A stretch of DNA of 58,900 nt, filler included, from Sphacelaria rigidula (lineage: Eukaryota): the NCBI GenBank assembly GCA_964200075.2. It is 7 parts of 7 records of this genome, joined end to end, with 100 filler letters (N's around TTAATTAATTAA, not from the genome) between each part and the next. Parts side by side here need not be neighbours in the genome. Positions count along the whole stretch, not along the records: positions 42,146 to 50,474 come from CAXNAA020011510.1; 6 more parts are not named here. One strand, written 5' to 3'. A program made the position numbers and the translations under genes. Under the pieces are notes generated by a model. That model ran no database searches, was not told the DNA's origin, and worked only from the letters and a program-made list of their open reading frames with translations. Positions 4,166 through 58,900 of the stretch are shown here, piece after piece. Each line of letters begins with the position of its first letter. The stretch's first letter is position 1.

Positions 4166-4422
4166 TGGCGATGTCTTCGGAGAGCGTATTGGGAACAAGA
4201 ATCCGACCTTCAATAGCATCGCCGTGCAATCCTCCTGTACTGGACGCAATCCCAGCATCAGCATCTTGCTCACAACAAGAAATAATCCAATATCCGTCGT
4301 GGTGCAGCAGCCCGCGAACTTCACCGCCATCAAGGAGTACGCTTCGTCGCCGATGGCTACGAACTTGTACCCAACAAGCCCTGCAAGGCAAAGTTCTGCA
4401 AAGTTCTACGCAAAAACAACGA

Positions 4423-4623
4423 ATACTACCCAAGGGCAGCTACCTTTGGTTGAAAGGCAGCGACAACCCCTGGTGGTTGGGTCAGAACCACCTCGCTAAC
4501 GTGGTTTCTGCCGACACGTACATCGTGCGCTTCATCGATGACCCTGGACCCATCCAGCACAAGCTCCGACCAGCACGATACACCACTAGCTCATCTGCCC
4601 CACGCGGATTCTGGTGCTTTCAG
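4423..4623 (+). other. PWWP/Tudor-like (Royal family) module at the end of Gypsy Pol
   Basis: ILPKGSYLWLKGSDNPWWLGQ...TYIVRFIDDPG resembles the PWWP pattern G-x-x-V-W-x-K-x(3-4)-P-W-W-P...Y-x-V-x-F. Confidence 0.55.
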
Positions 4624-5603
4624 CGACTACTACGAGCCACCGGCCATCTACGACTACTGGAGCTCTACTACTCCGTTTTTGGCTGGCGCTCGATCTCATT
4701 GGATCATCGATTTCAGACTTTGATTCCCTTGCTTCCGACCAACATGCGTTGGTCGCTACTGATCTTGCTGCTTTTTTGTCTCTGGAATCCCCCAGGTGAA
4801 AGCTCTGCTTCCTGTTGTACCTCCCTGGTTTCCTCCTTCGTTTTGCTATGACGCCGAAGCAATTTGTGCTTCTTCGTTGATCGCTAGCACGCAGAAGCAG
4901 TTTGTGCTCCCGCGTTTCGAAGCAGTATTTTCTGCTCCTCGCGTATTTGCTTCCCTTATTTTGACGTGTTGGAGTGTGGGTACGGGAGTGCTTCGTTAGG
5001 TGTGCCTTATTAGCCGCTCATGACTCTATGAGGAAAGGAAAACCTCAATTAACGTTACTTTTGAGGATGAATCCTCGCAGCTGCAATTAAGGTTTATCTG
5101 GGTGGGTTAGTGTCATGAGGAGCATATTAGCCTGTTGTCATGCGGGCTCAGATCCGTTGACGGGCCTAGCTAGATTGCATGGCTTTCAGGTTACTTCAAG
5201 ACGGCAGATCTGTTCAGAGTTGGTCAGATACGAGTCAAGAAGAGACGGGATCCCCCCGCACCTCGATTTTCTAGGGGGAGCTGTGCGCAGCAATATAACA
5301 TGCCTGCCGGCACATGAGAAATTGCGTACATGCTCGTAACCTGCATGATGCGAGTCTCTCGAGAGATTGGTAATCGCCGAACGAGGACACACAAAGGACA
5401 CAGGCGAGGAGCTTCCTTTCTGTGGTTGCTTCTCTCTCTGGTGATATCGTCATCGACACGCGTGTACACCACATTCGTTCGGTGCACCTAGCCACAACTG
5501 CTTCACTGCTGCAGACGTTTGGGGGGAAATATGGTTTCGCCCTGTGTAACTGTTTCGTTGAACCTCATTTTAGAAATCAAACCCATTCTCCAGGATCCAC
5601 TGT

Positions 5604-9040: not shown

Positions 9041-9332
9041 GGCATTTCATCACGCCGTTTTACCGAGTTAGGTCACGAAAGTTTGCACACATGTCCTGGT
9101 GGGCACTACGAAAAACTCGAAGACCGTTTTTTCTTTTAATTGTTTTGTTCTTTCACCAGTTATCCAGGATCGCGGTTGACCAAGTTGACCGGGGGGGGGT
9201 GCGAATCCCGGCTATCTCGATCCCAAAACCCCAAATCGAAAAACCCCGGTCTTCGAGTTATAGATAGTGCCCTCGAGAATATGTGTGCAAATTTTCGTGG
9301 TCTAACTCGAAAAAACGGCGTGAGGAAATGCC
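9041..9332. mobile_element. MITE/foldback with ~90-bp inverted arms
   Basis: GGCATTTCATCACGCCGTTT...TTTGCACACAT...AACTCGAAGACCG (9041-9130) versus its reverse complement at 9242-9332. Confidence 0.8.
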
Positions 9333-13356: not shown

Positions 13357-13863
13357 TTATGTGTGTACATTGATTCCAAGACCGGAACAACAATGCGCAA
13401 CAAGGAAAGCTCAGGGAAGTTTCAACGGACATACAAAATCCTCAGTTAGTTGTTTCTGCAAAACGTTTCCCGAAAAAATGTGAATTTTCGAAATGGGTTT
13501 GAGCCCCATTCAATGTTCGATGTTCAGCCACATTTTCCCGGTGACCGATGTTTTTTTCTCCGCTAGACTTGCATTTTTTGCGGGGCACCGGTCATCAAAC
13601 TCGGAGGCCGGTCAAGTCCAGTGAAACTTCTGATGTTTCGCTGGACTTGGCCCATCTCCGAGAAAATGAGCGCTCTCCGAGAAAACCGCAAGTTTTGCAC
13701 ACTCTGGACGATGGACACAATAATATTCAATTGCTTCAGCAATAGACACAGGAGAAAACCTATCGATATATATATAATCGAACAAGATAGATGGTGAAAC
13801 ACATCTATTGATATGTATTGTAAGGGACAGTAGATGTTGCAATAGTCGATCGATATCCCATAA

Positions 13864-14214
13864 CGGGGGATTCTATAAAGTGAGGTTGATCAATGAAATG
13901 AGGTTTGAGGAGGCTAGCCAGAATGTGACAAAAACCCGAGGGAAGTACCGTCCGCAAGTGCCTTCGATCATTTTCGGGGAGAGGGGGGGGCGTACTCATT
14001 TGTTGCTTGCCTTAGTCGTTTGATTATTGACCTTTCGAGACGGGGCGTGGTTAATGGTCAAACGACTAAGGCAAGCAACAAATGAGTACGCCCCAACCCC
14101 CCGAAAATGATCGAAGGCACTTGCGGACGGTGCTTCCGTCGGGTTTTTGTCGCATTCTGGCTAGCCTCCTCGAACCTCATTTCATTGATCAACCCCACTC
14201 TATAGAACCCCCTG
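13864..14214. mobile_element. Near-perfect palindromic MITE, ~165-bp arms
   Basis: 13864-14030 is the reverse complement of 14050-14214. The same terminus (GATTCTATAAA.TGAGGTT.ATCAATGAAATGAGGTT) also occurs at ~8146-8190. Confidence 0.9.
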
Positions 14215-14269
14215 TTCTATGGCAGTTACAACAGATGAAGATCACTCGCTATCGATGGAAATCGTGCAC

Positions 14270-15785
14270 CGCAATAGATTCTGGGATGTATGTGTCGATA
14301 ACCATTGCCGTAATCAATAGGTGTGATGAGCCATCCATCGATAGTCATTGCCGATATCAATAGATTCGGTGAGCCACCTATCAATATCAATTACCGTCAT
14401 CAATAAATTTCGTGAGTCGTCTATCGGTAGCCTCTACCAACAATGCATTTTTGGGTATCTATCAGTACGGTCATTGTCGTCAACAATTGTTCTCGAGAGC
14501 ACCTTTCGATAGCCAGTGACGCCAACGACAGGTTTCGATGAATATATTGCTCCCTGCAGTGGTCTTATGACATCAACGGCAATACCCCTCACACATGAAC
14601 ACGCAACTACCTGAGGCGTTAGCTGGCCATGGCTCCTGTGAAGTAAGGTGGAAACATCCACCGAAAAATGTGCATAGATAGGCAGTGACCGACGTCATTC
14701 AGCTACTTCTGTCGCCAGCTATAGATGTTGGTGGCCGCGATTCAGATGATATTGTGACCAACAATATGTATTGGTGGCCGCGTGGCAGATCCTATTGTGA
14801 TTAGCAATAGACATTGGTGGCCGCAATTCAGAGCCTACTGCAACAAATAAAACGTATCGATACACAACGTGATCCCTCCTCCATTGTCACAGCAATTATA
14901 CATGCTGTCCCTTTTCCCGAATCTCTTGTCGCCTACAATAGCTATCGATAGACATTGATGCCAGCCGATTACGACTGACGATGAATATTGACAGTCAATT
15001 TTTTGGGGTTATTGCAGCGCCAATGTTCTATCACATAGTATTTTGTCCAGGGTATAAGCACATCTCACCCACACACAAGAGTAAGCTAAGCGCTCATGTC
15101 CCTCAAAAAGACAACCAGCAGTACCGACACCACACCAACAACAACGCTTGTAAACGTTTGTTTACACATATTGCGGATTCCTGCAAAATACAGGCGTTTC
15201 AAAATTGTAGAAAGGTGGCGTCACATTTTCACGAGTAGTATCATTATATACCCACTGCATGTCCACCGGGGACTTCTCTACTGTACTTTTCAACGCAGTA
15301 TATTATGCTCTATAAGTAGTATGTGGCGATGTAGGTGTGGCAATAGACGACAGAGAATATCTATCGGCAGGCATTGTATACCACAGTAGATTCTGGCATG
15401 CACCTACCGATATTCATTGCCGCATCGCATAGATTTTGTACGCAATCTATCAATAGCGATTGTCGCCATCAATACATTTGGTATACAATCTGTCATTAGC
15501 GATCGTCGTCATCAATACATTTGGCACGCGGTCTATCGATAGCCATTGTCACCATGCATAGATTTTGAAAACTGTAGATCGATACAGTTGGTCGGCCGCA
15601 ATAGATTTCGGTGTAGGACCACAACAGACTGCTGCCCCGACTAAAGTGTGGGAAACTGGCCTATGGATAGACATTGCCGACGACAATAGAAAGAGAAACT
15701 TGCTGATCGATGGCCATTGCGGACAACGATGTCGACATCTACTGCAGCAGATTCTATTCCTATCGCAATAGATGCCGTCTATTGT
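14270..15785. repeat. Degenerate 42-43 bp tandem arrays rich in CAATAGAT/ATCGAT
   Basis: GGTGGCCGC at 14730, 14773 and 14816. Further periodic blocks at 14270-14430 and 15380-15610. Confidence 0.7.
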
Positions 15786-16410
15786 CGAGGGTGTGAAGTT
15801 TTGCCAAAAAGCAGCCCTGTGGCCACCGGGAAAACGCGCAGGTGTGCTGAAACCATTTCATCGAGTACAGCAAGGCATTTCAAGATTTCGAAATCTGCCC
15901 AGCTTTCTTTTCGGGCCTAAAATGACGAAAAAACTCCAAAAAGGCAGTTTTCTAGAGTTTTTATTGCCACAAGAAGCTTCAATAAAGAAAAGTGTTGAAC
16001 ATTGGCGAAATCACAGCAGTATGAAGGTCTCTGCGAGCCGCTCATTAACCGCAGAACTGTTCCAACACACAAAAACAACTAGTGAGATGAGCTGATACTT
16101 TCCTATACCCCCCCAACAGGGTGCAGCGCGGTCCCTCAAGGAAACGCCAACACTCAGCAACTTCATCGGTGCTTTGATACCCACCACATCATCATTTCAA
16201 CACATCTGATTCGGTGTCAACTCGTGCAAAAACGGTAAAGAACCTTACTCTGACTCCTGACTCCAGGGAGATACTTTCAAGATGTGAACCGACCTCATTC
16301 TCAGAAGTCTGACCACGTCTGGCAATATAGTGACATGAATGAAGAGTACCCTTCCTCCCGCGAAAGTTGTGATGTACTGCAGAGGTGGCTTGAATCATCT
16401 GGGTGAACCA

Positions 16411-16758
16411 GGGGAGGGGGGGGGGGGGGGGGGGTACCCATTTGTCGCTTCTTTTAGTGGTTTGACCATTGACCCCGCATCCCTTTCGAGACGGGCAGGG
16501 AAGAAGTCAGCTAATTGAGACCTCCAACATTTAGGTGCTCATTACGTTTCTTCCGTACATTACACAACAAACCATTTACATAACTTTCCCCCGTCCTGTT
16601 TCGCCGTCTGTGGCCACCATCTATCTCCTAGTATAGCCATCGTTCTTTCGCTACCGTCTAATGCATCAAACGATAAGTGAACCAGGGGTGTGCTCATGAT
16701 CATGCATGCCATAGTCATCAGACCATTGACCTCGCATCCCTACAATGCCGGGACGGAG
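16411..16758 (-). mobile_element. Poly(C)-ended short elements, family A (16411-16676) followed by family B (16685 to gap)
   Basis: G-run + TACCCATTTG..TAGT..TTTGACCATTGACC. GTGAACCA is duplicated at 16403-16410 and 16677-16684. Homologous to 48681-48945 and 43765-43840. Confidence 0.8.
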
Positions 16759-16858
16759 NNNNNNNNNNNNNNNNNNNNNNNNNNNNNNNNNNNNNNNNNN
16801 NNTTAATTAATTAANNNNNNNNNNNNNNNNNNNNNNNNNNNNNNNNNNNNNNNNNNNN
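16759..16858. other. Artificial scaffold-joining linker
   Basis: 44N-TTAATTAATTAA-44N. Confidence 0.99.
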
Positions 16859-17850
16859 TTGTTGTTGTTGTTTTCACATTAAAAACCGTTCCGATATCTG
16901 CGCGGTACACTCGTACTGGGCATCTGATGCGGAAGCCGTCCGTGGTCACAGGGTAGCAAAAAAAGCCATAAAAAACACGCGAAGTCCTAGCAGACCCATC
17001 CCAGGTATACATCGTATGGATGCGTACCACCCAAGATTATGTATCTCCGTATCTCCGTCATGGTCGTGGGATGCACATGAAGTTGACATCACGAGACGAA
17101 TCACAACTGTCACTGAATTATGCATGTTCCGGTTGGGGCATCACTCGGTACTACAAGGTACGTAAAAGGTGGGGAACAGTGCAGACGAGTCCATACGCCT
17201 GTATGCTAAACGTACTGCATCAACAGAGAGAAGGTAGGATGAGAAGCACGCGGCGATCGTTCCCAAGATGGAGTAATCGCGCACAGGGCATAAGGAGTAC
17301 AGGGTGTAACACGTACGGGGTATAACACCCCTTGACAGGAGAACACCGATAACATAGACCCTACCGTCACAACAGAGCGCGAAAGATGTCAAGAATCTGG
17401 GAGATAATAATGCCAGCCTCGTTTTTGTTGAAAAAAGTGAATGAACCACGGGTAAACAGTTTTGCTGACCCCGACGAGAACGTGATATTCACAATTCGAA
17501 AAGGGCAAGGGAGTCGGCACTTCGGCCATGACTCGTGTTTCTTTTTTTTAGTGTTTTCTGCATTTTTTATTATTTTTTTCTCCTGTTTTTTTTTTTTTTT
17601 TTTTTTTTGCTTTTTTCTTTCTTTTTCCTTTTTTTTTCGCCCCCCTCCCCCTTTTTCTGCCCCTGCTTTTGCACAAAAAATGACACGTCAACGGTTGAGA
17701 CAAAACCAAAAAGGAGGACAAATTAAGCTAGGCTAGTAAAACGGTGGGGGACCACGTGGGGAGCCCTGTTTCGACCTGACTTTTGATCGGGGCTCCCCAA
17801 GGTACCAGCCTGGCTTAACCCTTCGACCGCGAGAGTAGTCTTTCTGAATC

Positions 17851-18525
17851 ATGCATACTTTTTTTCACTTGAAATTGATGCCGATTCAACAGAAGACTAC
17901 ATACCCTGGACAATCTCACCCTTCGGCCCTCCGTCGTGTGCCTCCTCGGATGCATGTCGTCAAGGTCAAGGAGGATCTCCTGAAGAAGGGAGTCGACGTG
18001 GACAGAGTAACGGAGGCCCTTTTGGAAGGGGCAAACCCCGAAGATGGTGGTGGTGTTGGCATCGCTTTCCAGTGCATTGGGAACGGGGACTGTTGCATGA
18101 ATGTCGTCGCGACGCTGATCATCGCGAAAAGTAGGAGGGGCGACCGTCGGAAGGCCATATTGCGGCTGGCCAAAAAGCTGAGACTGGCCATCGTGATCAC
18201 GGGGATCAAGTACATGGAGTTGTTCCTCGGTGATCAATATGATTTTTATGGAGCCTGGCCCTGCTACAGCACGGAATGCAGGGAAGATCTGGCAACCTCC
18301 GGGTGGACCGTGTCTCCCGGAGTGGACGACGGGTTATCTCTCGACTCGACGGACACCGCACGGTTGATGTTCGTGCGGCAGCTGTGGCATATGTCTGTGC
18401 CGGGGGTTTTTACGCAGCAGTTCGCATTCCCCATCATGACCACTGTCCTAGGAGGTCCGCTGAGGGTGTTTAATCCAAATAAGTTGGTGTTGCACTTTGG
18501 TGAAAAGGGGGTGCGGAGTAAATGA
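17851..18525 (+). CDS. OTU-like cysteine protease domain ORF directly upstream of the MULE transposase (probably a pseudogene fragment)
   Basis: CIGNGDCCMNVVA resembles the OTU catalytic GDGNC-box. LRLAIV helix. HMSVPGVFTQQFAFPIMTTVLGGPLRVFNP resembles the OTU/vertnin-type m..pg.w......la.vl.r.i.v..P segment. Confidence 0.5.
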   Translation: MHTFFHLKLMPIQQKTTYPGQSHPSALRRVPPRMHVVKVKEDLLKKGVDVDRVTEALLEGANPEDGGGVGIAFQCIGNGDCCMNVVATLIIAKSRRGDRRKAILRLAKKLRLAIVITGIKYMELFLGDQYDFYGAWPCYSTECREDLATSGWTVSPGVDDGLSLDSTDTARLMFVRQLWHMSVPGVFTQQFAFPIMTTVLGGPLRVFNPNKLVLHFGEKGVRSK

Positions 18526-18589
18526 AGAGGAGACCTCATGCAATGAAGATGTGACAAAATCAACGAATCCCGCCCGATCGCAAACACTT

Positions 18590-21500
18590 GTATCCTTCAT
18601 ATTGAAGACGGCGGACGGGTCGAGGTACACTTACTGCAAGATCGAGTGCGAGCATTCGGGACAACCTCGGATAAAGGATCAGATGAAGCCGGGTGGCTAC
18701 CGTCGAGCCGTCAATCCATAAAAAAAGGTCAGTGAACACTGTGTCGGGAATCTGGCGTATGTTGGTAGAACATACGAGAGCCTCACCACACGATGTTGGA
18801 GGCCGATGTTCCTACACTTTCTGTGCAACGTTCTTTTGTCGTGGCCCCATAGCACACGTGTGTTGGTGCTCACGATCCCACACCGTGAGCACGACAGGAT
18901 GCTTGTCGGCAACTTTGTGCTCAAAGGACGCCTCCACTCGTAACCTCCTGGACAGGTGGGATTTCCATTCGTTGTCAGGATCACCTGGGCTCTTCGGGAT
19001 GATGCGCCACACGTCACCGTGGTGAGTGCTGCCGTCCGAACCCAGTCGCCAAAAACTAGATTTTTCTTTTGCGTTTCGGGCGCGGGCACGTGTAGCATCC
19101 GACAACATCCACCCCCTACCCCCCTTCCGCTCGCCTTGATTCCGTGCCGCCAGTCCCGTCAGAATCATAACCACGACCCACGGGGATCGATCACAAGGGC
19201 CAATCCTCATATCCTCCCTACGTCCATCGTTGCAACGAGGGAAAGAGATTTTCGGAAATGGACAGCGGCTGGCCTCCGAGCCGGGGACATTATCAAATTA
19301 CTCGAAGCGGATGGTGGGAGTTTGCTACTCGGCAAAGATGGGAAGAAGAAGGTAAGCGAGGACCACTCTGACAGAGGATGGGGCGGGAATCGCGTGTGGA
19401 ATCTGTTCTCTCGCGTCGCAAACCATTTATGAGAAGTGGCGGTTCAACCCTCGGCATCACTCGGGAGAGTCCTGTCCACCCCTTACCGTGTCATTTGTTT
19501 TCCTTTTCCTTTTTATGTTTGCGGTGGATGATCACGTTCCAGGTCCGCAACATGATGCAGAAGGTGCAGAGGGATTTCTACTGCTCTCCACAGGATGCGA
19601 CCGAATGATTGTCTACCCTCAAAAGCGAGCCTGGTATGTTCTGCGAATATAAACTGGATGCAGAAGGAAGACTCGTGGATGCATGCTGGGCCACCGCAGA
19701 GCAGCAACAGAAGTGCGTAACATACGGAGGTTGCATCCAGTTGGATACGACGGTGCTCGTGTGCAGGTCAGAAGGTATGTTGGGATGTGGTTCGCAGATA
19801 CGGATGCCCTCTTCTCTTTGTGGTTGGTGGGCGCGGATAGCGAGAATCGCAGCTGCATCCTGGGGTACAGCCTCTTGCGGTCTGAGTGCACCGAGACTTT
19901 CGAGTGGATTCTTGACAAATACTGCCGAGCGAGGTGGGCGCCGACCCAAGGTATCCTTCACGCCATGTAAACATACTTTTCAACTCTCGAGACTGAGAAG
20001 TTCTGCTGCTCCCAGAATTTTTCTCCGCCGATGCACTATTTGCGACAGTTGCCCCTCTTGACATGGACTGACGTGTTGGTGGTTATGGTGACAATATTTC
20101 TCAATTTTCGCTGCTGCACAGGTTGTGCTGTCAGATGCGGACCTGGCAATGACGGATGCGGTGGAGACGTCCTGGCCCAGCACGCTCCACCTGTATTGCT
20201 TATGGCACATTTTCAAAAACGTGCCGAATAATTGTTTTTCTTCGCTGAGCGAAAGTGATCGGTCAGTATTCATGCACAAATTCTCGTGCGCAGCCTACGT
20301 AGCCACACCCGAGGTGAGGGATGGTATGTGGTTGGTATTCGTCCCAAACACCGTCGGGGGGTCCCTCAATGTGTACGTCGATGAGCGCACGTGTTGGCGG
20401 AGTATCATCTTGGTTGTACGCGAATCTCATCAGGAAAACGGTAAAGGGGAGGAGCTGAGCGATCTCACTCATGAAAAATCCCCTCTGCCCCCGTATTGCG
20501 TCAGGCATTCGGTCGCTTCCAGCATGAGGTGGAGACAATGGCGGAGGGGACCAAGTGCGAGGGTTACATCGCCGACATGTTCGCGTGAGTACACAGCACA
20601 AGTGGCAGAAACCCCCAAAGTGGATCTCATTTTACCATGGCCTCCACGCCACAAATTGCAAACATCTGTGTCTATCGGTGGTCGTTCGTGGGCACAAGTT
20701 GGATAGCAACTTAACCCGACCCTCCATCCGGCGCCGTGTGTTACATCCATCCACTGACCGGCCTCTCCATCCGTTCAGGAAGAAAGAAAAATGGGCTTTT
20801 TTCTGCCGGCCGACACATCTTACCCTGGGTATGGTTGCGACGAAGCGAACGGAGGGTCTGTTCGGGGTGGCAAAACAAACTGGCATCCATAGGGGCCTGT
20901 CACTGTGCGCCCTTTGGGACAAACTTCGCCAGTTGGAAACGCGCCTGTTGATGGAGACCGAGAGGTGAGGCGCTGCGCGCTCATGCACAACCCCAATTCA
21001 GGAGATGAGGGTCGTCTAGGATCTCGGGCAAGCGGTGGTCTTGTTTGAAATAATAGCCGATCTTGGATTACCTTGGAGCCGCCTCTTTCACCAACTCGTG
21101 CTGGATAGTCGCGTGTCTCGATCCTTAACGTTGTGCGTGAACAGCAACCGTGATGTGTCTTCGTGGCCCGCGAATTTCAGGAACTCGCTCCTACTCGCAA
21201 TCGGCTTGAGGTTGGGGGCAATTCTTTAATCAACGGGCTGGTCAGCCACTCAATCCGTCGATGATTCCGTGCAGCTTGACTACTGGAAGCCATTGTAGTC
21301 TCGTTCCATGGGCATACAAATCCTGGGAAATTCGTGTCTGTTGAATCTCACGGAACTTGGTCTTTCGGATGTCCGACAGACTATCGTCCCGCCGCATCGA
21401 TACCGGGAGAACATTCGCTGTGAAGGACCTGGAGAGCATGTTCCGACCCATTCTGGACAGTCTGCGGGCCGCCGGGGCGAGTAATTACTGCGAGAAGGTC

Positions 21501-28671: not shown

Positions 28672-28702
<31 letters not shown>

Positions 28703-28867
28703 ACTTCCTGAGCGGCGCCCCGCCCTCTCCCCAAACCACCCGGCGCNNNNNNNNNNTGTTGTGTGACGGGCGGGTGTTCTCTTTTCCCCCCCCTTGAACC
28801 CTCTTTGGTAAAAAAGGTAATAAAAAGGTTCCCCCCCCCCCCCCCCAACACCGCCCTTGGTGACTGA

Positions 28868-31680
<2,813 letters not shown>

Positions 31681-32784
31681 ACCTTTGAATTTTGGGGTCT
31701 TGGTGGTGGCTAAACTGCGATCAAGAGTGTTGGTTTCGGAACGAGGAAGCTGAGGAGTCGAATGGGGGAGGGGGGGGGGGGGGGGGGGGGGGGTTGCCCG
31801 CCCCATAGTTTCCGCTTTGCCCTTTATTTTGTAGGGTACGCCTTTGCTCACGCTGTCGTGGTCAAAGGATGNNNNNNNNNNAGGGGGCAGGAGTGGGGGA
31901 GGGAGGGCTGGAGGCGGGTGCTCTGCCGGGGGCCGGGGTGGGAGTGACCAGCGGGATGGGCTTGCCCGCCCCATAGTTTCCGCTTGTCTCGTTATCTTGT
32001 AGTGTACGCCTTTGCTCACGCTGTCGTGATCAAATGATGGATGTTTCTTTCGGGCGGGCCTGCTACGCTTTCCGATCCAATTGTGTGGAACAGGGAGTGG
32101 TCAGTCATGCGGCGGAGGAAGCCATGAATTTTACTCATATTCAACATTAGATTCGACTATCGCAGCTGTTGATTCTTATCGGTTCGCGGCCGGCGGGGGA
32201 CCCAAAACCATGTCTGCGTCAAGTCGTGGGGAGGATTTTGGCCTGACATGTTCTTGTGCAACACGTGGTAGGATGGTCGATGATTGGTCCGATGGATCGG
32301 CTGCTCTGTTTCATGAGTTGAGAGACATGTTCAAGTCGTATTCTGAAGTCCGAAATGTGAAAAGTGTGTCGACCTTACACACGTTTATTTCGCCACCGCT
32401 AATCGGTGTGTACTTGATGCACGGGTTTGCTGTTGATGGTGACTGATATTTTAGCAGGGGAAAACCACTTACTTGAGCCTCATCCACACTCATCTATCCC
32501 TTTTAAAGCCAGTAGTCGACCTAAAGCCAAGAGTTGAAGATCGTTTTGTGCTCTCATCTGCACAGTCAGTCCCTTGCGTCGCCCAAGTTTGCTCAGGCCG
32601 AGCACAACGTGAGAGCTTTTCGAAGTAGTCAACGACTGTGTTTCATTCTTATGACTGAAGCTTTTTGCGGACACATTGTCACAGTCACTCGAAGATCCCC
32701 GAGCTCTCTTCAATAACACCCTCCTCATGACCGTGGTACCTCTACCGTTGTCTCCCGATAACACGAAGTAAGCGCCCTTCTCCA

Positions 32785-41204: not shown

Positions 41205-42045
41205 GTAATCACCCATAATACAGTCATGTTCCACTTTCCTTCGGAAGACACACACCCTGCAAATATATCCTTGAATTGGGCATTAATCTTTATCTCTGTC
41301 TATTTCTCTGCCTGTCCGTCATACAGATCCTCGTGATCTACATCAGTCAAACTTTGGAGCACAACATTTTCGAAAGCGTTTTTTTTTCAGTTTTTGGCTA
41401 CTACGACTCATCACGGTTTCTGCGTTGATCCCAAACTTTGAGAGTCGAGAGACATGAGTACCTGACACGATTTTCGACACGAGAAAATTACGATCATTTT
41501 TTACAGGAGATTACGGCCTCACCGGTCTTTGGGGGTCCTACGATTGTGCAGACGCTGGTTCCCGCCCTTCGATATTTTCGCTCGACCGAACCGACCCGGA
41601 TCGTTATGCTGTAATGAACAATTAATATGCCTTCAGTTTTCCCATTTTCTCGATGTTTATTGCGCTACAGCCGAAAACCGTGTTTTAGGGCCATATGCGA
41701 ACAAGAAAAAATGGTATTGTTCCGACAAGACAAAATTTGCAACTGTGTCCTGAGCATGACCTGCTTCTTTTTCCAAGGGCTATTGACCCTCAAACTCTCA
41801 AGGGAAGGTGACAAATCGTCTTTGAAAACATCCCGATTGAGAGAATACCATATTTTAACTCGGACTTTTGTGTGTAAATTTCGAATGTAAACACTACTGC
41901 ACCATTCGGTATGTGCGTCGTGGGTACGATGTGCTGTTTTTATTGCTCTTGTCGTTTTTTTCTGCCCTCCCCCCCCCCCCCCCCCCCCCCCCCCCTCCCC
42001 CTTTCTTTCTCTCGCTTTCCTCTTCTTATTCCCTCCTCCCTCCTC

Positions 42046-42145: not shown

Positions 42146-42865
42146 TGGCTAGAACGAACCCAAGCGTGAGAATTTCCAGCTTCTCGTTGTGCTCGGCTTT
42201 CCCCATTTCGATTTACGTGAAAATTTTGCCTCCCAAAACCATGCACTTTGGGGGGGGGGCTATCGTAGAAAGTGTCGGTTCTAAGCCAGGAAGGAGGCCC
42301 TAGAGGCGCAGAATGACCGTTCTGACCAATCACGGCCGTCAAAATGGGCGCATATTTTCCCTACAGGTGGTCTACAGGTTACCTCGGTGCCTATTATAGC
42401 AGTATTTCTCAAATTCGTCATGGCATTTCAACTATAAATAACATGAGTACAAATAACGTGCTTTGTACTCAGCTCGTGGTCTGTGCCGCCTGTCTGACGC
42501 CTCATGTGTTGCCAGCACAGCTTCACACTGTAGTGCTGTTGCGGAATACTCAGCAGAGGCAGGCACTAGCAGCATTCGGTAACTTGTGTTCAGTGGAGAG
42601 CGGTGCCCCGCTGATATTTTCTCGCCGTCGTATCCCGCGGAGACATACCGCACACACATTGACTGCCCACTACGTATAGAGCCTGCACATGCACAATCAA
42701 AGCCGGCCAGGGATGCTCCGGAACTATTTTCGCGCATTGATTCCCAGCATCTACATGGTTATGAAAAAAAGTTTTTTGTGTAGCGAGAAAAGAGCTGTTC
42801 TGGACCTCATACGTGGCATAGTCTATCTCAGTCCATCTGCGGAGGTCGCTGTCTACGGGTCAAGT

Positions 42866-43040
42866 GGGGCTCGAGAGTCTCGTGTGCCCCGAGCGTGCGC
42901 AGAACGCGTTTTCGTCCAAATGGGCGCCATAGGCGCCGATTTGAGGTCTACCAACGCCACACTTGTTGTGCACCTCCCTTGCCTGAGGGTTGGGTCTCGG
43001 TATGCCTTGGTTTGGGGTTAGGGTTAGGGTTAGGGTTAGC
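42866..43040. repeat. Dispersed repeat carrying (TTAGGG)n, with an inverted homolog at 50180-50391
   Basis: GGGGTTAGGGTTAGGGTTAGGGTTAG at 43014-43039. The adjacent ~150 bp aligns with the reverse complement of 50225-50385. Confidence 0.75.
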
Positions 43041-43669
43041 GATAGTTGTAAAATGTGTCAACCAGAGATATAATGTAGCCCAAGTCCGGTTAACCCCCCT
43101 CGATTCCACGGTCATGTATGATGATACTGCAGGCTAGTGCCATGCATCAGGAATTCTTACTCGAATTGTAATGCAACACCAATTAACGATACTGTCCAGT
43201 GGAGTGGAACTGGGAGTTTTTTTCGTCATACCCGAAACATGAGAATGAGGCAGTGTCTTCACAAACTATTTCTCGATCGGAATGGTGCGGCGAAAAAGAA
43301 AATGAACAACTCCGATCTGATACGTATAGAGTTCAGGACATTTCGTCATTCATGTCCACGTCATTTATCTTGAAATATCGACCTATAAAATGGGAAATTT
43401 TGTTTTTTCCATAGCACGTTTTGATCGAAAAACACTGTGCTCAAACACGCCCTGACGGCGGCTATCGCACAGTTGAAGAAGGGCCGTCGCTGATTTACAG
43501 ACACATTTTAAGCCGCACACCGCGAGGGTAGTCCATCTGGGTCATGCGTACTTTTTTCAGGTAAAGTTGATGCCGATTCAACGTACCTCCTCTCGCCGTT
43601 TAAGGGTCAATTTGGGTACATATCTGAGTACGATACAAATAAGAAAGGGTATAAGATTAATTGTTTTCG

Positions 43670-44305
43670 CATATTTAAGGGGTTTTGATCTGGGTTGGTT
43701 GATTGATTTAGTTAAACAGGTCTGATGGAAGGGTTGGGATGGGATTGGGCTGGGTTGGTTGTGTGGGGGGGTGTACTCATGATGATGCATGCCATAGTCA
43801 TCAGCCCATTGACCTCGCATCCCTACAAGGCCGGGACGGAGCACGCCGGGTTTTTGCCGGACCAGTCTCGCTCTCAATCTCCAAGCGCGAAGCGCCATGG
43901 TGTGTTCGGCGAGCCGCATGAAGGGTGAGCTGCATCCTGCTAAGATTGTTCGGCCCGAAGCCTACTGGTCATCTTGCATTTGGATGACAACCTACGACGA
44001 GTTCCTTTTTTTCCTGGTATCGCCACTTCCAGAGACAGCGGTGGCTTATGCACTGCCTCATGGGTGTCTGGGTTGGTTGTAGGGGGGGGGGGCGTACTCA
44101 TTTGTTGCTTGCCTCAGTCGTTTGACCATTGACCCGGAGCACTGGGTTGGTTGTGGGGGGAATTGATTGTCTTGTTTTGTTATGGACAAGGGCAAGACAA
44201 CGAAGGAAATCCCACAACCAACGCAATCCCATCCCAACCCTTGCATCAAACCTGTTCATCTGAATAAGCCAAACAACCAATCCCCAACCTCCCCTCAAAC
44301 ATATA
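43670..44305. mobile_element. Foldback element hosting two poly(C)-ended insertions
   Basis: AACAGGT.TGATG.AAGGGTTGGGATGGGATTG at 43714-43747 is mirrored at 44226-44257. Confidence 0.8.
43763..44141 (-). mobile_element. Poly(C)-ended short elements: family B (43763-44067) and family A (44081-44141)
   Basis: CTGGGTTGGTTGT is repeated at 43750-43762, 44068-44080 and 44142-44154, and each insert begins with a G-run. Confidence 0.85.
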
Positions 44306-46101
44306 AATCATCATTATCGCCCCCTCGGCCCAAGAACTGTGTTTTCGATTTCATATTTGTTCCAAACCTTACCGTATACTCTCACTGGATTGTCGTCCCT
44401 CGCCCCGAAAACTCTGTTTTCAAATCAATTGGTGTTTCAAACTGTAGGGCAGACGTGACTGACACGGACTGCACGTAAGAACAGCGTCCACTCTGACGAC
44501 CGCATACAACCGCACGTTATTTTGCCGCCTTTGTTATGTCGAAATGTGGTATGATGGGAGTAATGATCACATACCGGTTCGCCCTCTCCGAGGTTGTGAC
44601 ACGCTTTTCCCCATGGCCATCTCCTGCCACCCGAGTAAATTAATCTCCGCGTTATGCATTTATGTCCCCAACCATCGCTTGTGTCGGTTGGGACAGAAGT
44701 TCGTAAATTTGTACTTTTATCACTTGTATCTGTCGTTCCCACGACTACTTGCAATCAACGGACGATCTGACATGCTGTCGCCACCTCGCAGTACCCTCCC
44801 CATCCCATCGTTCCTTCTCATGCCCCTAACACAGCCTACAACCACGTTTCCTACACATCACTACACTTGCCGCTGCACATATATATGTCGACCCCATTGA
44901 TGTCCATTAACGCCCCCGATCGAGTGGCCTGTGTGGTGGCTGAGAACGGTTTTCCCGTGAAGGTAGTAGGTACCTCCCAAAAGGGGTCGACGGGGTCATA
45001 CCTCCGTCTTCCTGAGTGCTGCTACTGCGACGCTGAGGACGCCAATGAGGTGGCATCGGATCTAAAGAGCATGACAGATCACGTTAAAATCCAATTTATT
45101 CGTGTTAAAACTCACTTAACTTCGTCAAACTCACAATGCTCTCTCGGGTCACACTGACCAGATCCAGATATCAGGGTGGGCGTACCGTCTTTCTCCCATC
45201 CTCAAGTACAGTGTGGTGCGGCTATCTTCTTGGTCAAGCGAGTTTTTCGTTCTGTTTCGCCTCTGCGTCGAAGCCACTTCAAGTTTTACCCCTTGAACCC
45301 CCCGGCAGCTACCGGTGTATATTCGGGGTTGAGCCGCGGACGGCGTGATATCTCCACGCCAACTACACATAACACCGCAAAGGTCACTTTGATTGTCGGT
45401 CTGAGACATGTATACTTCGCCCTCCACATTTCTCGATGTATTTCGGCTCGCGCCTTGCACGGTGGCTCGCCGAGAATGACTACCTGTTATCGGTACTTCT
45501 CACACGAGAACATGGATGGCGACGAAATTTGCTCAAGACTTGGAATATTTTTCGGTCGTTTCTTATGGGCTGCAACATGGGTGTACTTTGCCTATCCCCC
45601 ATTCAGCAGAGTCCAACAGGTCAGTTTTCTCATGCAATACTATGACCCCGCCACACACCTTTAACAGTAAACTGGAGCAAGATTGGCACTTGTTGACATA
45701 CAGATATGGAATATGTGTGGAAGCGCAGCGGCGAGCGTGTCCTTCCCCCCCCCCCCCCCCGCCCTCCTCGTTCGCCGCCTCCATCCCTCCGCTTTCACCA
45801 GCTGCTGTTTGCTGCTGAACATTCGGGAGACATGGCCTGCAACGAAAGACAATTTGCCCCCCCATCCATGTTGAGCTGCAATTCTTTTGGTAAAAACTGT
45901 ATTTCGCCAGCAATCATGTCAAGCGCCCGGACGACCGACCAGCAGTCATTTTCGCCAACACTCTAGCCATTCCCCAAGGATCGGCGAAACTGTCAAATCT
46001 ACCAGTCGTCCCACTGACCCTAGAAGCAAGGGACACTACCTAGCTGTAGGTCAGGAACTCCCCCGCCCTGCCCTCCTCGGAGAGCCCTCGAAGTTGATCA
46101 A

Positions 46102-47106
46102 CCCTTTTGCGACCGGGCCTCCAGAACGACCAATGAGGCTGGGTAGGAATGATGTGTCTGGAGTCTGCACGAAACAGACAGTGGCGTGTGAAAATCCGCG
46201 TATGTAACCGCAGGGTTATGACGTTATGACGAAGACCGAAAGTTTCATCCAATCTATTTTTAGGTGCAGGGTGCGCATTAGGTAGTGTACATCTGATGTA
46301 GCAAGCAGTATGGGACGCGGTAGAGAGCTTCCAAGAGGATGCGGCGNNNNNNNNNNGGCTTTGGATGATATTATTGTGCCCATCACCTTGCCGCACAGCC
46401 CTTTGGGGTCGGGGTGGGCCGTCATTTCCCTCTTTGTTGTATGCGGCAAATTATCTTCGAAGGGTATCAGCGTTGCGGCGCGCATGCGTACAGTATAGTA
46501 CATACAGTACAGAGTAGTACGCCTCCCCGATCGCCGTCGCAGCTACAGCAGCATACTCACGCACACGTTCTGGGCAGTTTTCAGCTACCGAGATCAACTG
46601 CCTATAGACAGCTTCTTCATCCCCATCCACTACATCGGCAGAGGGATAAGCAGAACTCATGACGGTAGCTCCTTTTGTCTTTCCACAGCCCATCTGGTTT
46701 TAGTGCCTCGTGAAAATGACTATATGGTGGCATGTACACTCCTTCCCCGTTTTTCCGCTCCACCCTGTGTTAGTGTGATGACTACGTCTTAGTATAGAAT
46801 TGTGACCCCAAAAAACTCCGGAAAAACTCCGGAACGCTATACTGGGTGCAAGTAATACCATACAACCAAGTTCCGACCGCCCTGCACATGGAAACTCGGT
46901 AGGGCTTATCTGGGCCAGGGATAGGACCCCCACACGATCTTTGCACTTGCATGACACTCGCCAACAATCCCCGGGCTGGTCGTTCGGGTTTGGTCGATAA
47001 ATTTCGCCTCGCCGTGATTGGGCAGGTCGCTCGAAGACTTTTTTATTTTATCATTTCACTAACACAGGGTCAACCCTATGTTAGTGGGGGGTCCGTCACA
47101 AGAGGG
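46102..47106 (+). mobile_element. piggyBac-type non-autonomous element, full-length copy (~1 kb)
   Basis: TCAA|CCCTTTTGCGACCGG ... CCGTCACAAGAGGG|TTAA. TIRs match and the flanks are TCAA/TTAA. Confidence 0.85.
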
Positions 47107-48124
47107 TTAAATGGCGTTAGCCTTTTAGCACCAAACTTTGCTTCAGTACAGTTGAGCAGCTGACCGTCCCACGGGACGATTTCTTCGAAGGGGATGTTAT
47201 CTCAGGTGTTTGGATCGTGTAAGCAGTACTAATATCAAGGGATGAAATATGGACATATTCACTTTTCATTATGGTGGGGCAAGATGGACCCCCGGCGCGC
47301 GTTGTAAGCCGAAATGGAACAAACACTTCTGTGGCTCGCGTCCAGCATTGCACCTGCCCAGCCTCCGCTGCTTAGTGTGCAAGGGTATGGGTTCGCGAAG
47401 ATTGTAGGGAAAGTTGAGGTATCGCTACCAGACCGCAGAAACACGTACAACAGCAGAGGTTGTAGCGCGGTGTGTGGGCTCGTGGGTTGATGGGTGGCAC
47501 AGTACACAACAAAAGATAGCGGTATGGTTGTATGGGGCAGACTGTGTGACGCAGCTTGTGCCTGCCTGACTTGGCTGACAGACTGATGAACAGTTGCGGT
47601 GGCTTTGCCAAGGCATAGAGGCCACCCAAGAGGCGAAGTGGTGATGGCGACATCAGACTGGGAGAGCTACTGCCACTGCCTGCAACATGGCTGTACAGTA
47701 GACGCATTCAAGCGTACATGCACACCGTGCGACCAGTTCCCGCCGTACAAGTCATGACGGCAGGCACAAACCAACGAACAACGAACTGGCCGCAGCTGGA
47801 ATAACGAGAGTATGCTCCTATGCTCTCGTTCCCTGTTCTATACAAAACCCAAGACTTTCCTGGATGTGAGGCAGGCCTTGTGGTGAAAACTACTCCGACC
47901 TTCTGCGTATACTGTTCCCACCTGACGGGGTTGAGCGCTCAAAGGGTCAACTGTCGCATGCCTTGAACAGTTTGATAGGTTACCTAATGACATGACGTGT
48001 ATACTACCATACCATCACCGACATGTATGTGCAGGCTTGGTACAGCAGCCGATCTTGACGATGTGCTCCTATTTCACGGCGGCAATATCAACAAATCATG
48101 CGGTGAAATCACGGCGTTTCTCTG

Positions 48125-49043
48125 GGGGGCGGGAGGGCGGGGTGTACTCTTGATCATGCATGCCGTAGTCATATGACTACTGACCTCGCATTCCTACCAA
48201 GGCGGGACGGAGCACGTCGGGTTTTCGCCGGGTCAGGCTCGCTGTCACTTGCCGGGCCAGGCTCGCAATCAATCACCAAGCGGAATCGCTGTGATGTGTT
48301 GGGCTAGTCTTATGAAGGGTGAGCCGTATCCCCCTTGAATCGTTCGGACCGAAGCGCACTGTTTTCTTGCATGCGGATGACAGCCTCCTATGAGTTGCTT
48401 CACTTCTGGTATCGCCACTTCCAGAGATAGCCACGCGTTCCACATTGCCTCGTGGATGTCTCACCATTGATACTCCATGTAATATGATCATCCCCTCTCC
48501 GCGGAATGGAGGTTCTCCCACCCCGCACAACATGATCTAGCTCGACCACCATCATGGTTTCCGAAAATACGCAAGGGCGAAAATCCCGGGTAACCTCATC
48601 GCCTAGCTTACGCAGTGAGAGGCGTGTTTAACAGCGTCGTTGCCAGCCGACGCCAACCCTCCGGGAATCGCGTTTCTCTGGGGGGGGCGTACTCTTTTGT
48701 TGCTCGCCTTGGTCGTTTGACTATTGACCACTCATCCCTTTCGAGACGGAGTACTGTTCCTACTTCTAGTGGAGGCGCCTCCAACATTTGGGCGCTCATT
48801 ACATTTCTTCCATAAATTACACAAGAGCCTGCCACATATTTCATCCTCTGTCTGATTCACCGTCTGTGGCCATTATCTATCTCTTAGTATAGCCATCATC
48901 CTCTCGTTACTGTCTAATATATCAAACGATTCCATGCCACCTTCGGTTGCTTCTCTGGGGGGGGGGGTACCCATTTGTTGCTTACCTTAGTCGTTTGACC
49001 TTTAACCACGCATCCCTTCGGAGAAGGAGCACCGTTCCTACTC
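48125..49043 (-). mobile_element. Three serial poly(C)-ended inserts: B (48125-48669), A (48681-48946), A (48958-49043)
   Basis: Duplications GCGTTTCTCTG (48114-48124 and 48670-48680) and TTGCTyCTCTG (48947-48957 and 49044-49054), each followed by a G-run. Confidence 0.85.
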
Positions 49044-49814
49044 TTGCTCCTCTGGGGGAGACATGAAGCTTTTCACATCATTCACGATATTTTCTCGGTA
49101 TTGCCGCTGTTTCTGTGTGAATGTGATCCGTTGACATGATTGTGTGTACCGCAGACGTCAATCTACTAACGGCATGCACAAAAAAAAGTGGCGAAGGAAT
49201 GGTGCTCGGTTCCATATTGAGTGGTTTTTGTTGTTGTTGTCTGCTTCCGCGTTGTCTCGTGCCGATGTAGATGGCAGGAGACGCTCAAGTGGAGGAAAGA
49301 GAACGACGTTGACGGCGTCATCGAGAAGCCGCAGCCAAGATTCGCCGACTGCAGGTATGCGTGTGTCTCGAGAATGCATGAAATATATATATATATATAA
49401 AAGCACAAGCTTTCTTACTTTTCATCCCCTTTGTCGCAAGCTGGTCTTGTCGGGACAACAGTGTCGTCGGTTGACATGCAGCCCGGCATTTGGGGGGGAA
49501 GGGGAGGGGCAGGGCGCGGTGTTTTTCGGGACGGTAGGTGCGGGTCCTTCTCAGGAACCGTACGCTTTCCGAAATATTCACCGAGCGATAACCGATTGGT
49601 TGGTTCTAGTGGAGGCGTCGAACTACCGTCCGCAATGTGTTCTGAGTGACCACGTCGGGTTTTTTTGCGCATAATCTCGAACCCCCCTGGTCATACATGA
49701 GCGTTGTCTGTCCACCGGAAACGAGCAGTATTATGTCGAACACCGCATCAAAATCCCGCCTTATTGATGTCTTACCTCTTGACCGTCGTTAGGCTGCATT
49801 ATCTGGGTCCTTAA

Positions 49815-49951
49815 CCCTTTGGGAACTAGATCCCCAGGGAGTGTTGATTTTTGTTTTTGTGAATCGGCGTCATTTTCATTTTTTTTTGAGTCAAAATAAT
49901 GCCGATCCACAAGATTCACAAACAAAAATCAGCACCTTAGTTTCGGAAGGG
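49815..49951. mobile_element. 137-bp piggyBac-type MITE
   Basis: TTAA|CCCTTTGGGAACTA ... TAGTTTCGGAAGGG|TTAA, with internal inverted arms. Confidence 0.92.
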
Positions 49952-50474
49952 TTAACACGGAGTGCTGAATCGCAAATTATGCTGACTCAACAGATGGCCC
50001 ATCCAAGCGGTTAAGGGGCCAATACCTTGTGGCCGCCAGGGTGAGCCATCTGGGTCTTCTAGTCATTTTCCAGACGAGAACGTAATGATGCCGATTGTAG
50101 CAGATGATCACCCGTGGCGGCGGTCAAAGACGAACGTGTACGCGAGTTGGTGGCTAAGTTTCACGGCAAACACATACTCCTCTCTTGCTGAACCCTCACC
50201 CCAACCCCAAACTGACCCTAACTCAAGGCTTGCCGAGAACCCTCGGGTATGGGGGTAGAAAAGGTACTCTGAGCAAAAGAATGCGATTGCAGAGCTCAAA
50301 TCGACGCCGCAGGCACCGGTTTGGGCAAAAACCCGTTTTGCGTACGCAACGTAGCGAGCAAGCGCGTGAGACTCTCAGCGCCCCCCCCCCCTCCCAAATT
50401 TAGCCTGGTCCGGCGAGAACCCAGCGTGCTCCGTCCCGGCTTTGCAGGGGCGGACCCCCGATGGGGTTGGCGTC

Positions 50475-53399: not shown

Positions 53400-54453
53400 C
53401 CCTTCTTCACCGTCCAAGGTCCCGTATACCTGTCATACTGCAGTTTCATGCCCCTGCCATCCCGGTATGTGGAACTTTCGCTGTCCCTCACCGTTACCAT
53501 ATCTCCTTCCGTGACCGACACGCCTGCTGATGGTCTCGAGATAGCGGCATTGCCTTTTCACGCGCCACTGCTTTTACCCCCTGCCTTTTGTCCAGCGCCA
53601 CCCTTTCCTCGGGGAGATTTTGTTTGCGCTGATCAACGAAGGCATCTAGCCCCTTGCTCGGTTCTGCTTCTTGTAAGAGGAAAACGAGGGAGTCTAGCGG
53701 TGTGCGCGGTTTGCGGCCGAACAGCAGCTCGAAAGAGGATATGTTCGAGGATAGCGATGTGTCCGGCAATGTGCGCTTGATCCACTGAGCGGGTGAGACA
53801 TACTCCTCCCACCTCTGGGGCCACAGCCTACATAGTTCCGACAGCATATCTAACAGCCATCCCCTGAGTCTCTCAACTGCTCCTTGACCACGTCGGTGAT
53901 CCGACGGCCCGAAAGCGATGTCCGCCTTCAACCACCTGCACAGATGCGTGACCACATCGGCCCTGAACTCTTTGCCCCTGTCGCAGCGGAGCTTTTGTGG
54001 GACACCAAAAGTTAAGCATAACTCTGCTAGGATGCATGCAATCTCGTCAGCTTCTTTTGATGGTAAAGGAAACCCGAACGGGAATCGGGAGCGGCGGTCA
54101 ACTACAAGCAAAATGTGCTTGTTGCGAGAGTGCGACATCACATCAATGGTTAGCAAGTCGATTTCCAACTCGTCCCATGGGTTTACAGTGCGTCCCGGTC
54201 TCATCGCCATTTGACGGCTAATTGCCTTCTTACGCCTTCTACCGCTGCACGGCAGCACATACTGCCTGGTATCACTCGTCATCGTAGGCCAATGGAAGCG
54301 GTCACGCATCAGAGCAAGGGTGGCGCCTACTCCAACATGTCCGTGGAATGTATGCACGAGTGCTAACAGGTCAGCTACCATCGTTTTCGGAACGGCTAGC
54401 ATCTCCTTGTTATCGACTCCTCGGTACCATACTCCATTAGCCGCAGGGCTCAC
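53400..54453 (-). pseudogene. Gypsy integrase
   Basis: VHTFHGHVG, RFHWPTM, LEIDLL, VVDRRSRF, LRCDRGKEF, QGAVER, FELLFGRKPR. Confidence 0.93.
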
Positions 54454-54539
54454 CTGTGCAGCTTGGGGCAGAGACCGCGGCTACAGAACAACCTTATGAG
54501 TGCCGAACAGTTAGTGATCAACGTGAACCTCCTACCGGC

Positions 54540-57827: not shown

Positions 57828-58600
57828 GTGTACGTAGGACCAAGCGCGGGGGAACTATCAGTTGCCAGCAGCGCCGTCGTGCTGCAACACCGGATGTGGT
57901 CGACGCTGCGTGTGATGGACCAGAGAGTCTTGAAAATGCCGGAGGATGAACACGTCAACGGTAGGCGGGTGACACAGACAGATAGGTGCTCCGCCCACCG
58001 TCGCAAACTCCTAGTCGAGCTCCTGGCAGAAACCAGTGGAACGTTCACATCTCTAACTTCAGCTGAGCGAGTAAACGTTCACCACATCACGGGCGAAACC
58101 GATACTGTCCCACACGAGTCCGTCATTGTGGCCGACCGGCTATGGATTCTCGTCCGGGCGGAAGTGATGACGAACGGTGCCACCAATTCTATGCATGCTG
58201 CTCTCGACTCCATCACTCTATCACCCAACGAGTCGTGGAGTGCGGCAGCGGAACGAGTGTTGTTAGCATTTCGCGCGAGCCTAGCAAACGCGGACCGGCC
58301 GTATAGTACCGAGGCCACGTATTTCTGGCGATTCATCTCCACCCTGCAGCTAAGTGAGCTCCACAATCGTACTATCAAGGTCGATCTACCTAACCAGGTT
58401 GATCGGCTAGGCCTCATGCCAATCCTTCATGAAAAGACGCACGTAGTCTGGGCCAGGTCGAAGCCTTCGAGGAGTGAGTGGCACAGTCCAATAGAACTAG
58501 CAATGCAGAGGCGGGGAGAAGTAGCGAAGAGTCTGTACCAGGACCTCATTCGTATCATGACCGCCCGTAACCTAGCATGGCGCGACCATAGCCACGCACG
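57828..58600 (+). CDS. Unknown ORF, possibly Gag capsid-like, opposite to the adjacent Gypsy element
   Basis: Uninterrupted ~260 codons, apparently helical. LDSITLSPNESWSAAAER resembles the Gag major-homology-region pattern. Confidence 0.4.
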
Positions 58601-58603
58601 CAT

Positions 58604-58900
58604 ATGGTGGCGCTCAGACGCAAAGTAGACGAGGAAGAACACCTGGAGATATACGGGTGGTTGAGAGAGGGGATAGGAATGATTGCATATTTGCATGGCC
58701 CAATGGACGCTGCGAAAAATATGAAACTGCGATTCGGGGTTGGGGACCCAGACCTGCCAGAAAGAAGGAAGAGATATACCAGTCGTCGAAAGGACGAGGA
58801 AGTAGATGGACAGCACTGCCTCTGTGGCAAAGCAACAGAGAGTAGAAGTGATATAGTGGCAGAATGTGAGCTACACAAGGAGAACTGGGACGTGCCAGAG
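58604..58900 (+). mobile_element. LINE ORF2 C-terminal fragment (5'-truncated), runs off the window
   Basis: Open frame MVALRRKVDEEEHLEIYG...YLHGPMD..KLRF.VGD.DLPERRKRY...CLCGKATESRSDIVAEC. This is a CCHC-type C-terminal finger with His replaced by Asp. Confidence 0.75.

Follow-up and report, generated by a model that had tools for sequence, protein, structure and literature searches.

L1 and Alu elements insert at A-rich sites and into the poly(A) tails of older elements, the primer end pairing with the homopolymer tail of the RNA, and the tail plus the target-site duplication (TSD) recreate the target, so that head-to-tail clusters arise. Named families of non-LTR retrotransposons that target microsatellites exist as well. 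That such retrotransposons target rRNA genes and microsatellites is mentioned in the abstract of PMC4640811. The closest described systems are those of Ectocarpus. In the curated list of PMC12477816, RTEX-1_Ec32 and RTEX-2_Ec32 are RTE-X LINEs of 5.5–5.9 kb and very high copy number, curated as a single EN-RT ORF with "(C)n 3'" and a TSD given as "C-rich". The same description presents RTEX-N1_Ec32 as a non-autonomous element of 604–607 bp, with a 60 bp 3' end 83% like that of those LINEs, which "can be present in tandem" and ranks first in abundance among the families of the Ectocarpus genome. In the main text of the paper, "in tandem" and "C-rich" have 0 occurrences each, and target regeneration is not discussed there. 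Phrase searches of the literature for C-tailed LINEs returned no relevant paper besides this study of Ectocarpus transposable elements (PMC12477816). As far as its curated descriptions go, the serial-insertion behaviour of such an element family is already in print, and the locus reported here, from Sphacelaria rigidula, is an ordinary example of it.

The LINE whose ends are found at this locus resembles RTEX-1_Ec32 and RTEX-2_Ec32, as curated, in its single EN-RT ORF, its (C)n 3' end, its C-rich TSDs with G/C runs at every terminus, and its very high abundance; all the traits described for the curated families are matched. It differs in belonging to another genome, and its RTE-X likeness is one to published descriptions, not to a phylogeny or a consensus. 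Its predicted partner, element B (527 nt plus tail, non-coding, LINE-like only in about 60 nt at its 3' end and with no recognised source for its 5' part), is built like RTEX-N1_Ec32 as far as that description goes, and the tandem state mentioned for the latter fits the clusters found here. Beyond that brief remark on RTEX-N1_Ec32, the present locus adds shared and nested TSDs and regeneration of the target. The logic by which the tail recreates the target is that of L1 and Alu, but the homopolymer here consists of C on the strand of the element and of G on the nicked one, in place of A or T, and the LINE is of another lineage. Like the repeat-targeting retrotransposons of the abstract cited above, the elements prefer a simple-sequence target that merges with their own 3' tail. 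Unlike in site-specific families, the duplicated bases beside the run differ at every locus, and as only the G-run is common to the loci, we take this to be a loose preference and not a fixed site.

The window, that is, the whole 58.9-kb stretch of DNA that was analysed, is composed of seven 8.3-kb pieces with N/TTAATTAATTAA spacers between them. Three repeats lie head to tail at 48114–49058, with an 11-nt direct repeat and then a G-run at the boundaries of each, and since the block is entirely within piece 6 (42146–50474), an artefact of joining is excluded. The layout that had been proposed for it (repeat-Gn-B-repeat-Gn-A1-repeat-Gn-A2-repeat-GGGG) was recovered string by string, as follows.

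48114–48124: direct repeat copy 1, GCGTTTCTCTG; flank-side copy of the TSD of B
48125–48142, minus strand: 3' tail of B, degenerate and C-rich; on the minus strand, CCCCGCCCTCCCG plus C5
48143–48669, minus strand: B, predicted non-coding, non-autonomous retroposon, 527 nt
48670–48680: direct repeat copy 2, GCGTTTCTCTG; second TSD copy of B, its last 7 nt (TTCTCTG) doubling as one TSD copy of A1
48681–48687, minus strand: A1's (C)n tail, which makes up G8 on the plus strand when the final G of the repeat is included
48688–48950, minus strand: A1, 5'-truncated LINE 3' end; decayed coding region for the last ~80–87 EN-RT residues, its outermost 4 nt (TTGC on the plus strand) duplicated by A2
48947–48957: direct repeat copy 3, TTGCTTCTCTG; TSD of A2
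48958–48967, minus strand: A2's (C)n tail, which makes up G11 on the plus strand when the final G of the repeat is included
48968–49043, minus strand: A2, last 76 nt of the LINE (last 24 codons plus terminus)
49044–49054: direct repeat copy 4, TTGCTCCTCTG; second TSD copy of A2, with 1 mismatch in 11
49055–49058: GGGG, the G-run of the target itself, with the unique flank AGACATG after it

In all four cases the G that opens the run is the last base of the repeat, giving G6 at 48124–48129 (then CGGGAGGGCGGGG), G8 at 48680–48687, G11 at 48957–48967, and G5 at 49054–49058. Copy 3 is made up of 4 nt of A1 and the 7-nt TTCTCTG, which is the other TSD copy of A1. A1 and A2 are 82.6% alike over 92 nt. 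Together with its G-rich run, B extends over 545 nt (48125–48669) and is the longest of the five B-like pieces in the window, as the original prediction had said. Around the block, the search for inverted repeats gave only weak pairs of 20–23 nt (74–80% identity), which were treated as chance.

A 21-nt motif taken from the conserved end matched three loci in metagenome contigs (L001–L003), in all of which the "A" sequence runs on for hundreds of bases. This extension corresponds to a minus-strand ORF of 681 aa with an RVT_1 domain (E 2.8e-33), ending in ...AAC AAA TGA, with the stop codon 5 nt before the (C)n tail that appears as a G-run on the plus strand; the LINE terminus thus reads ...TGAGTACG and then (C)n. 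Full-length relatives have 1328–1360 aa, with an APE-type endonuclease ahead of the reverse transcriptase. In addition, a scan of genome contigs gave a sole match, a 5259-nt contig (L005) placed in a bacterial MAG and presumably a stray eukaryotic contig, which holds a complete copy of the LINE: an ORF of 1358 aa with the domains Exo_endo_phos (PF03372), Exo_endo_phos_2 (PF14529), and RVT_1 (PF00078), followed by TGA-GTACG-C13. No convincing match for a TSD was found upstream of this complete copy, and the scan of viral contigs for further copies gave none. The nearest named protein is from the brown alga Ectocarpus sp. (P0004; identity 71%, query coverage 67%), and among PDB entries only chains of human L1 and R2 match the LINE reverse transcriptase, at E 1e-20 or weaker, human L1 ORF2p giving E 6.6e-21.

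Placement by tblastn on the LINE protein assigned A1 to its last 80–87 residues, A2 to the last 24, and the segment 16441–16670 to the same end. LINE copies of 50 to 263 nt all retain the terminus beside the run and vary at the far end, and those of the window are 75–80% like the copies on public contigs. A1 and A2 are therefore 5'-truncated 3' ends of a LINE with a single APE+RT ORF of ~1360 aa. The orientation of the EN-RT ORF also sets the strand: it puts the elements on the minus strand, so that the plus-strand G-run is a (C)n 3' tail and the variable far ends are 5' truncations. On this point the original prediction has to be reversed, as in its plus-strand reading Gn led each element; what it took for a leader is the (C)n 3' tail of a minus-strand retroposon, joined to the target's own run. 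An origin of the conserved end from a ribozyme or a snRNA was considered and dropped, the end being coding sequence. Folding of 11 ends with RNAalifold predicted 11 pairs with 0 compensatory changes, giving no support to a conserved 3' hairpin.

The last 57–60 nt of B are 81–83% like the LINE end, and nothing else is common to both. When B was searched by tblastn with 102 LINE-like proteins, only the equivalent of the C-terminus (~15 residues) was found, the best other match having E 0.001 in a database of 950 nt. No Pfam family was found in the two longest frames of B, ARAGORN detected 0 tRNA genes in the whole window, and Rfam gave 0 matches at the gathering score over the whole window, with chance-level matches only within 47900–49300 (best E 0.23). 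As it matches neither a tRNA nor an Rfam family, B does not count as a strict SINE, an element whose 5' head comes from tRNA, 5S or 7SL RNA and contains a pol III promoter; judged by its sequence, it is a non-coding, non-autonomous partner that borrows the last ~60 nt of the LINE. On contig L005, the LINE tail is followed by a short spacer, unlike the one here, and then by ~60 nt that resemble the 5' end of B; this stretch beyond the LINE tail suggests that the B copy of the window is near full length, which we consider probable. B had been recommended as the best seed for extension, a use that loses its point if, as L005 and the published length of the Ectocarpus partner indicate, the copy is probably near full length already.

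The duplications themselves stand out from the background. GCGTTTCTCTG has two matches in the window against 0.03 expected, and TTGCTYCTCTG also two, against 0.05; in both cases, at least two matches were reached in 0 of 100 shuffles. The junction repeats, four of them and exact or near-exact, were found nowhere else in the window. TSD lengths are variable (7, 11, 11, 13, and 11–12 nt), as expected for APE-type LINEs. The duplication of A1 is only 7 nt, and the 5' end of A1 is not placeable to the base, because the likeness of A1 to the longer copies of the LINE is gradually lost in its outermost ~10 nt. Two further clusters in the window served for comparison.

43750–44160, minus strand: CTGGGTTGGTTGT, G7, B (305 nt), CTGGGTTGGTTGT, A+G11, LINE end (~50 nt), CTGGGTTGGTTGT, G6, flank
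16404–16758, minus strand: TGAACCAGGGG, A+G19, LINE end (~250 nt), TGAACCAGGGG, B

In the first of these, CTGGGTTGGTTGT is present three times within 43750–44154; in the second, TGAACCAGGGG is present twice within 16404–16688, the duplication itself ends in GGGG, and window piece 2 ends within the B copy. Ten copies with the shared 3' terminus were counted in the window, seven of them in the three head-to-tail clusters with shared duplications, a proportion that may overstate the genome-wide rate, as the seven pieces of the window are perhaps not a random sample of the genome. Two of the other three form an inverted pair, and the last adjoins two copies of another C-tailed repeat. Counts given here cover the 58.9-kb window, six public loci, and the contigs of four runs.

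With two other clusters of the same build and other target duplications in the window, B-A-A is not a fixed unit. Separate insertions, each with its TSD, and no fixed composite had been predicted, and this is borne out by clusters that differ both in their duplications and in the order of the elements; recurrence of B-A-A as a fixed unit, which would have spoken for the contrary, was not seen, the block matching only itself in the window. We thus consider it very probable that the locus holds three independent target-primed insertions, all on the minus strand, stacked at one site bounded by a G-run and regenerated each time. The earlier claim that each insertion recreates its own landing site agrees with the shared or nested duplications of the three window clusters, which support reuse of the target.

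Regarding the mechanism, the endonuclease would nick the plus strand at or within a short G-run, and the 3'-OH of the G-ended strand would pair with the C-run at the 3' end of the RNA and prime the synthesis of a cDNA, which would often be 5'-truncated. A second nick 7–13 nt off would give rise to the duplication, and every insertion would be left flanked on both sides by "duplicated bases + G-run", giving head-to-tail stacks with shared or nested duplications. It is this unit, left on both sides of every insertion, that would allow the target to be regenerated and reused. A short G-run followed by A persists past the last duplication, as GGGG-A here and as GGGGGG-A at 44155; these residual runs, together with the 16404 duplication that ends in GGGG, point to a nicked strand ending in Gs and pairing with the C-run of the RNA. 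We infer the position of the nick and the C-run priming from the anatomy of ~14 junctions; the duplications of variable length, the 5' truncation, and the homopolymer tail fit target-primed reverse transcription. A lone non-C base, mostly T, is found between the long C-run and a second short C-run in 7 of 14 junctions, a feature that the simple priming model does not predict.

Other origins for the block were weighed against this serial insertion. LINE reverse transcriptases are known to switch templates, and head-to-tail neighbours are very common here, so that the three elements could have been laid down together in a single retrotransposition event; such an event makes just two copies of the duplication, whereas the locus has four junction repeats, each with its own homopolymer tail, and the innermost pair of repeats includes 4 nt of the neighbouring element, which makes template switching very improbable. 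The idea that B-A-A moved as a block, either as a composite repeat unit or in a segmental duplication, draws on the unrelated contig L005, where a LINE end is also followed within ~10 nt by a B-like 5' end. Yet the 971-nt block matches itself alone in the window, the other clusters differ in order (A-B, B-A), in truncation points, and in spacers, the spacer of L005 is unlike the one here, and the fillers are diverse in four runs; we give this origin even less credit than template switching. Finally, elements on the plus strand, truncated at their 3' side and with a G-run derived from untemplated C addition at the capped 5' end of the RNA, would account for a run that adjoins the conserved end and for a far end that varies, a pattern resembling 3' truncation on that strand. 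This has next to no probability, as the conserved end encodes the C-terminus of a minus-strand EN-RT ORF and carries its stop codon, and the Ectocarpus relatives are given as "(C)n 3'" in their curated descriptions (PMC12477816).

Regarding the order of these insertions, A1 preceded A2, since both copies of the A2 duplication carry the TTGC of A1's end and the flank copy has GCGT at this place; a history starting with A2 was rejected, as three parallel substitutions would be needed in both copies. The original prediction went further, with A1 arriving first (TSD TTCTCTG), B entering later into the tail-side copy, and A2 into the flank-side copy. Its placing of A1 before A2 stands on the nested TTGC; its placing of A1 before B does not, because insertion of B, then of A1 into the flank-side copy (TSD TTCTCTG), and then of A2 gives an identical sequence, all three elements entering at one flank-side nick (GGGG then A). 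The sequence is fully compatible with the A1-first history, A1 opens two of the three possible histories if the regenerated copies are equally usable, and the TSD copies of B are identical in 11 of 11 positions when those of A2 differ in 1 of 11. Against it, B alone has a degenerate tail, interrupted 3 times in 19 nt, compared with pure C8 in A1 and pure C11 in A2, which hints that B is older. The comparison of divergence among copies, which had been suggested as a check, leaves the order unseparated: by eye, A1 and A2 are each ~8 of 76 shared positions off a six-sequence consensus. On balance, whether B came before or after A1 is about even, and the complete A1-first history falls a little short of an even chance.

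A bolder proposal is that C-tailed LINEs always re-nick the flank-side bond between the G-run and the following A, so that the one-way stack would be a chronological record (B, A1, A2) and the lone T would be a trace left where a read-through copy of the preceding target had served for priming. We hold this to be unlikely; if true, it would amount to a self-seeding, directional building of arrays, a mode undescribed for any LINE.

Contigs from public runs were also compared with the region. The runs that contain the locus are labelled as one coded organism or as "algae metagenome", in keeping with the eukaryotic and algal look of the DNA. Three runs had 14,508–20,484 matching contigs each, and the remaining one had 5,726. 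Junctions were bridged without differences by records 1, 4, 7, and 8 of run X1 (all four junctions), a run that may be the sample behind the assembly, and by records 17, 19, and 23 of run X4 (three junctions), with records 8, 14, and 23 bridging into unique flank. Among the 15 joints listed of the 281 found in the four runs, 6 connect B, at variable points, with the first base of an A end, 3 run to the A2 end, and 6 skip part of B; in nine of these 15, variable positions in one element are thus joined to where the next one starts. Joints with a short side were read as repeats located elsewhere, following the warning of the tool. The 12 fillers listed comprise 9 different strings, with 453 more fillers beyond these. 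None of the 15 joints listed of 281 skips the block, and none of them represents a partly filled allele; the site is filled in the contigs of X1, X3, and X4. Contig depth, summed across the elements, reached 1–1.9 million versus ~25–33 on the unique flanks, a ratio not to be read as a copy number.

No new element class is opened by these data. The locus would instead be a fully resolved case of a homopolymer-tailed LINE and its partner regenerating their target and piling up at it, and nested duplications such as these can date some of the insertions relative to one another, not all of them. For annotation, it means that long G/C runs in this genome are retroposon tails, and that masking should treat the "A" repeats as the 3' ends of a LINE that lies on the opposite strand. 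Integrases of LTR retrotransposons and a fragment of a MULE transposase are also present in the window, as is an exon of an AAA-ATPase with ...CTACAG before it.

The LINE was also met next to B, its ~530-nt non-coding partner, outside the window. In the public contig L005, presumably a stray in a bacterial MAG, a complete LINE copy with a C13 tail is followed by a short spacer, different from that of the window, and then by a B-like stretch of ~60 nt similar to the 5' end of B (L005 1-125, minus strand, compared with window 48613-48662). As this contig is unrelated, the LINE-then-B neighbourhood arises independently again. Within the window, a further LINE piece was located, incomplete because the window end cuts through the element, together with additional C-tailed and G/C-rich features.

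LINE piece, C-tailed repeat and long G/C runs in the window
58595-58900, + strand: LINE piece, residues ~490-591 of P0001 (681-aa LINE protein with RVT_1), 70% identity
28606-28946: another C-tailed repeat, two copies, C30 at 28673-28702 and C16 at 28831-28846, and a B 3' fragment
31770-31793, 41969-41995, 45745-45760, 50381-50391, 42250-42259, 9191-9199: further long runs of G or of C, each 9-27 nt in length

The two copies of the C-tailed repeat are separated by an N10 gap and followed by a B 3' fragment, whose tail (C7+TCCCCC) is directly joined to ...CTACAG, after which comes an exon encoding an AAA-ATPase (PF00004, E 1.4e-13). The polypyrimidine tract of the intron may be the tail of the retroposon. 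Sequences adjoining the six long G/C runs were unrelated to B or to A, the 5'-truncated LINE 3' ends, and the junction "short run, one base, long run" was often present at these runs too; they may correspond to other families or retrocopies mobilised by the same machinery as A and B.

LINE ends were also found in inverted orientation, in a palindrome of ~355 bp at 13862-14216. Its outer arms extend over 126 nt with 91% complementarity; the inner ones (46 nt) correspond to the LINE 3' end in two inverted copies, runs included. Since its outer ends are similar to a repeat present at several other window sites (families D12/D17), the palindrome has the appearance of a foldback element, or of a MITE-like one, carrying a LINE end in both arms. 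Inverted arms (61 nt, 82% complementary) were likewise observed at 43693-43753 and 44218-44278, with the B-A cluster 43750-44154 between them; thus, the reused target of this cluster is placed almost centrally within a hairpin-like repeat. An interstitial telomere-type repeat, (GGGTTA)4.2, occupies 43015-43039.

The window was built from seven pieces of 8329 nt each (the last, 8326 nt) with 100-nt N/TTAATTAATTAA spacers between them, and the repeat family D1, with its exact 8429-nt spacing, was rejected as a biological repeat, as it corresponds to this joining spacer. Finally, LTR-retrotransposon integrase ORFs (Integrase_H2C2 and rve) and a MULE transposase fragment were detected at 2332-4851, 53494-54480, and 20092-20706.
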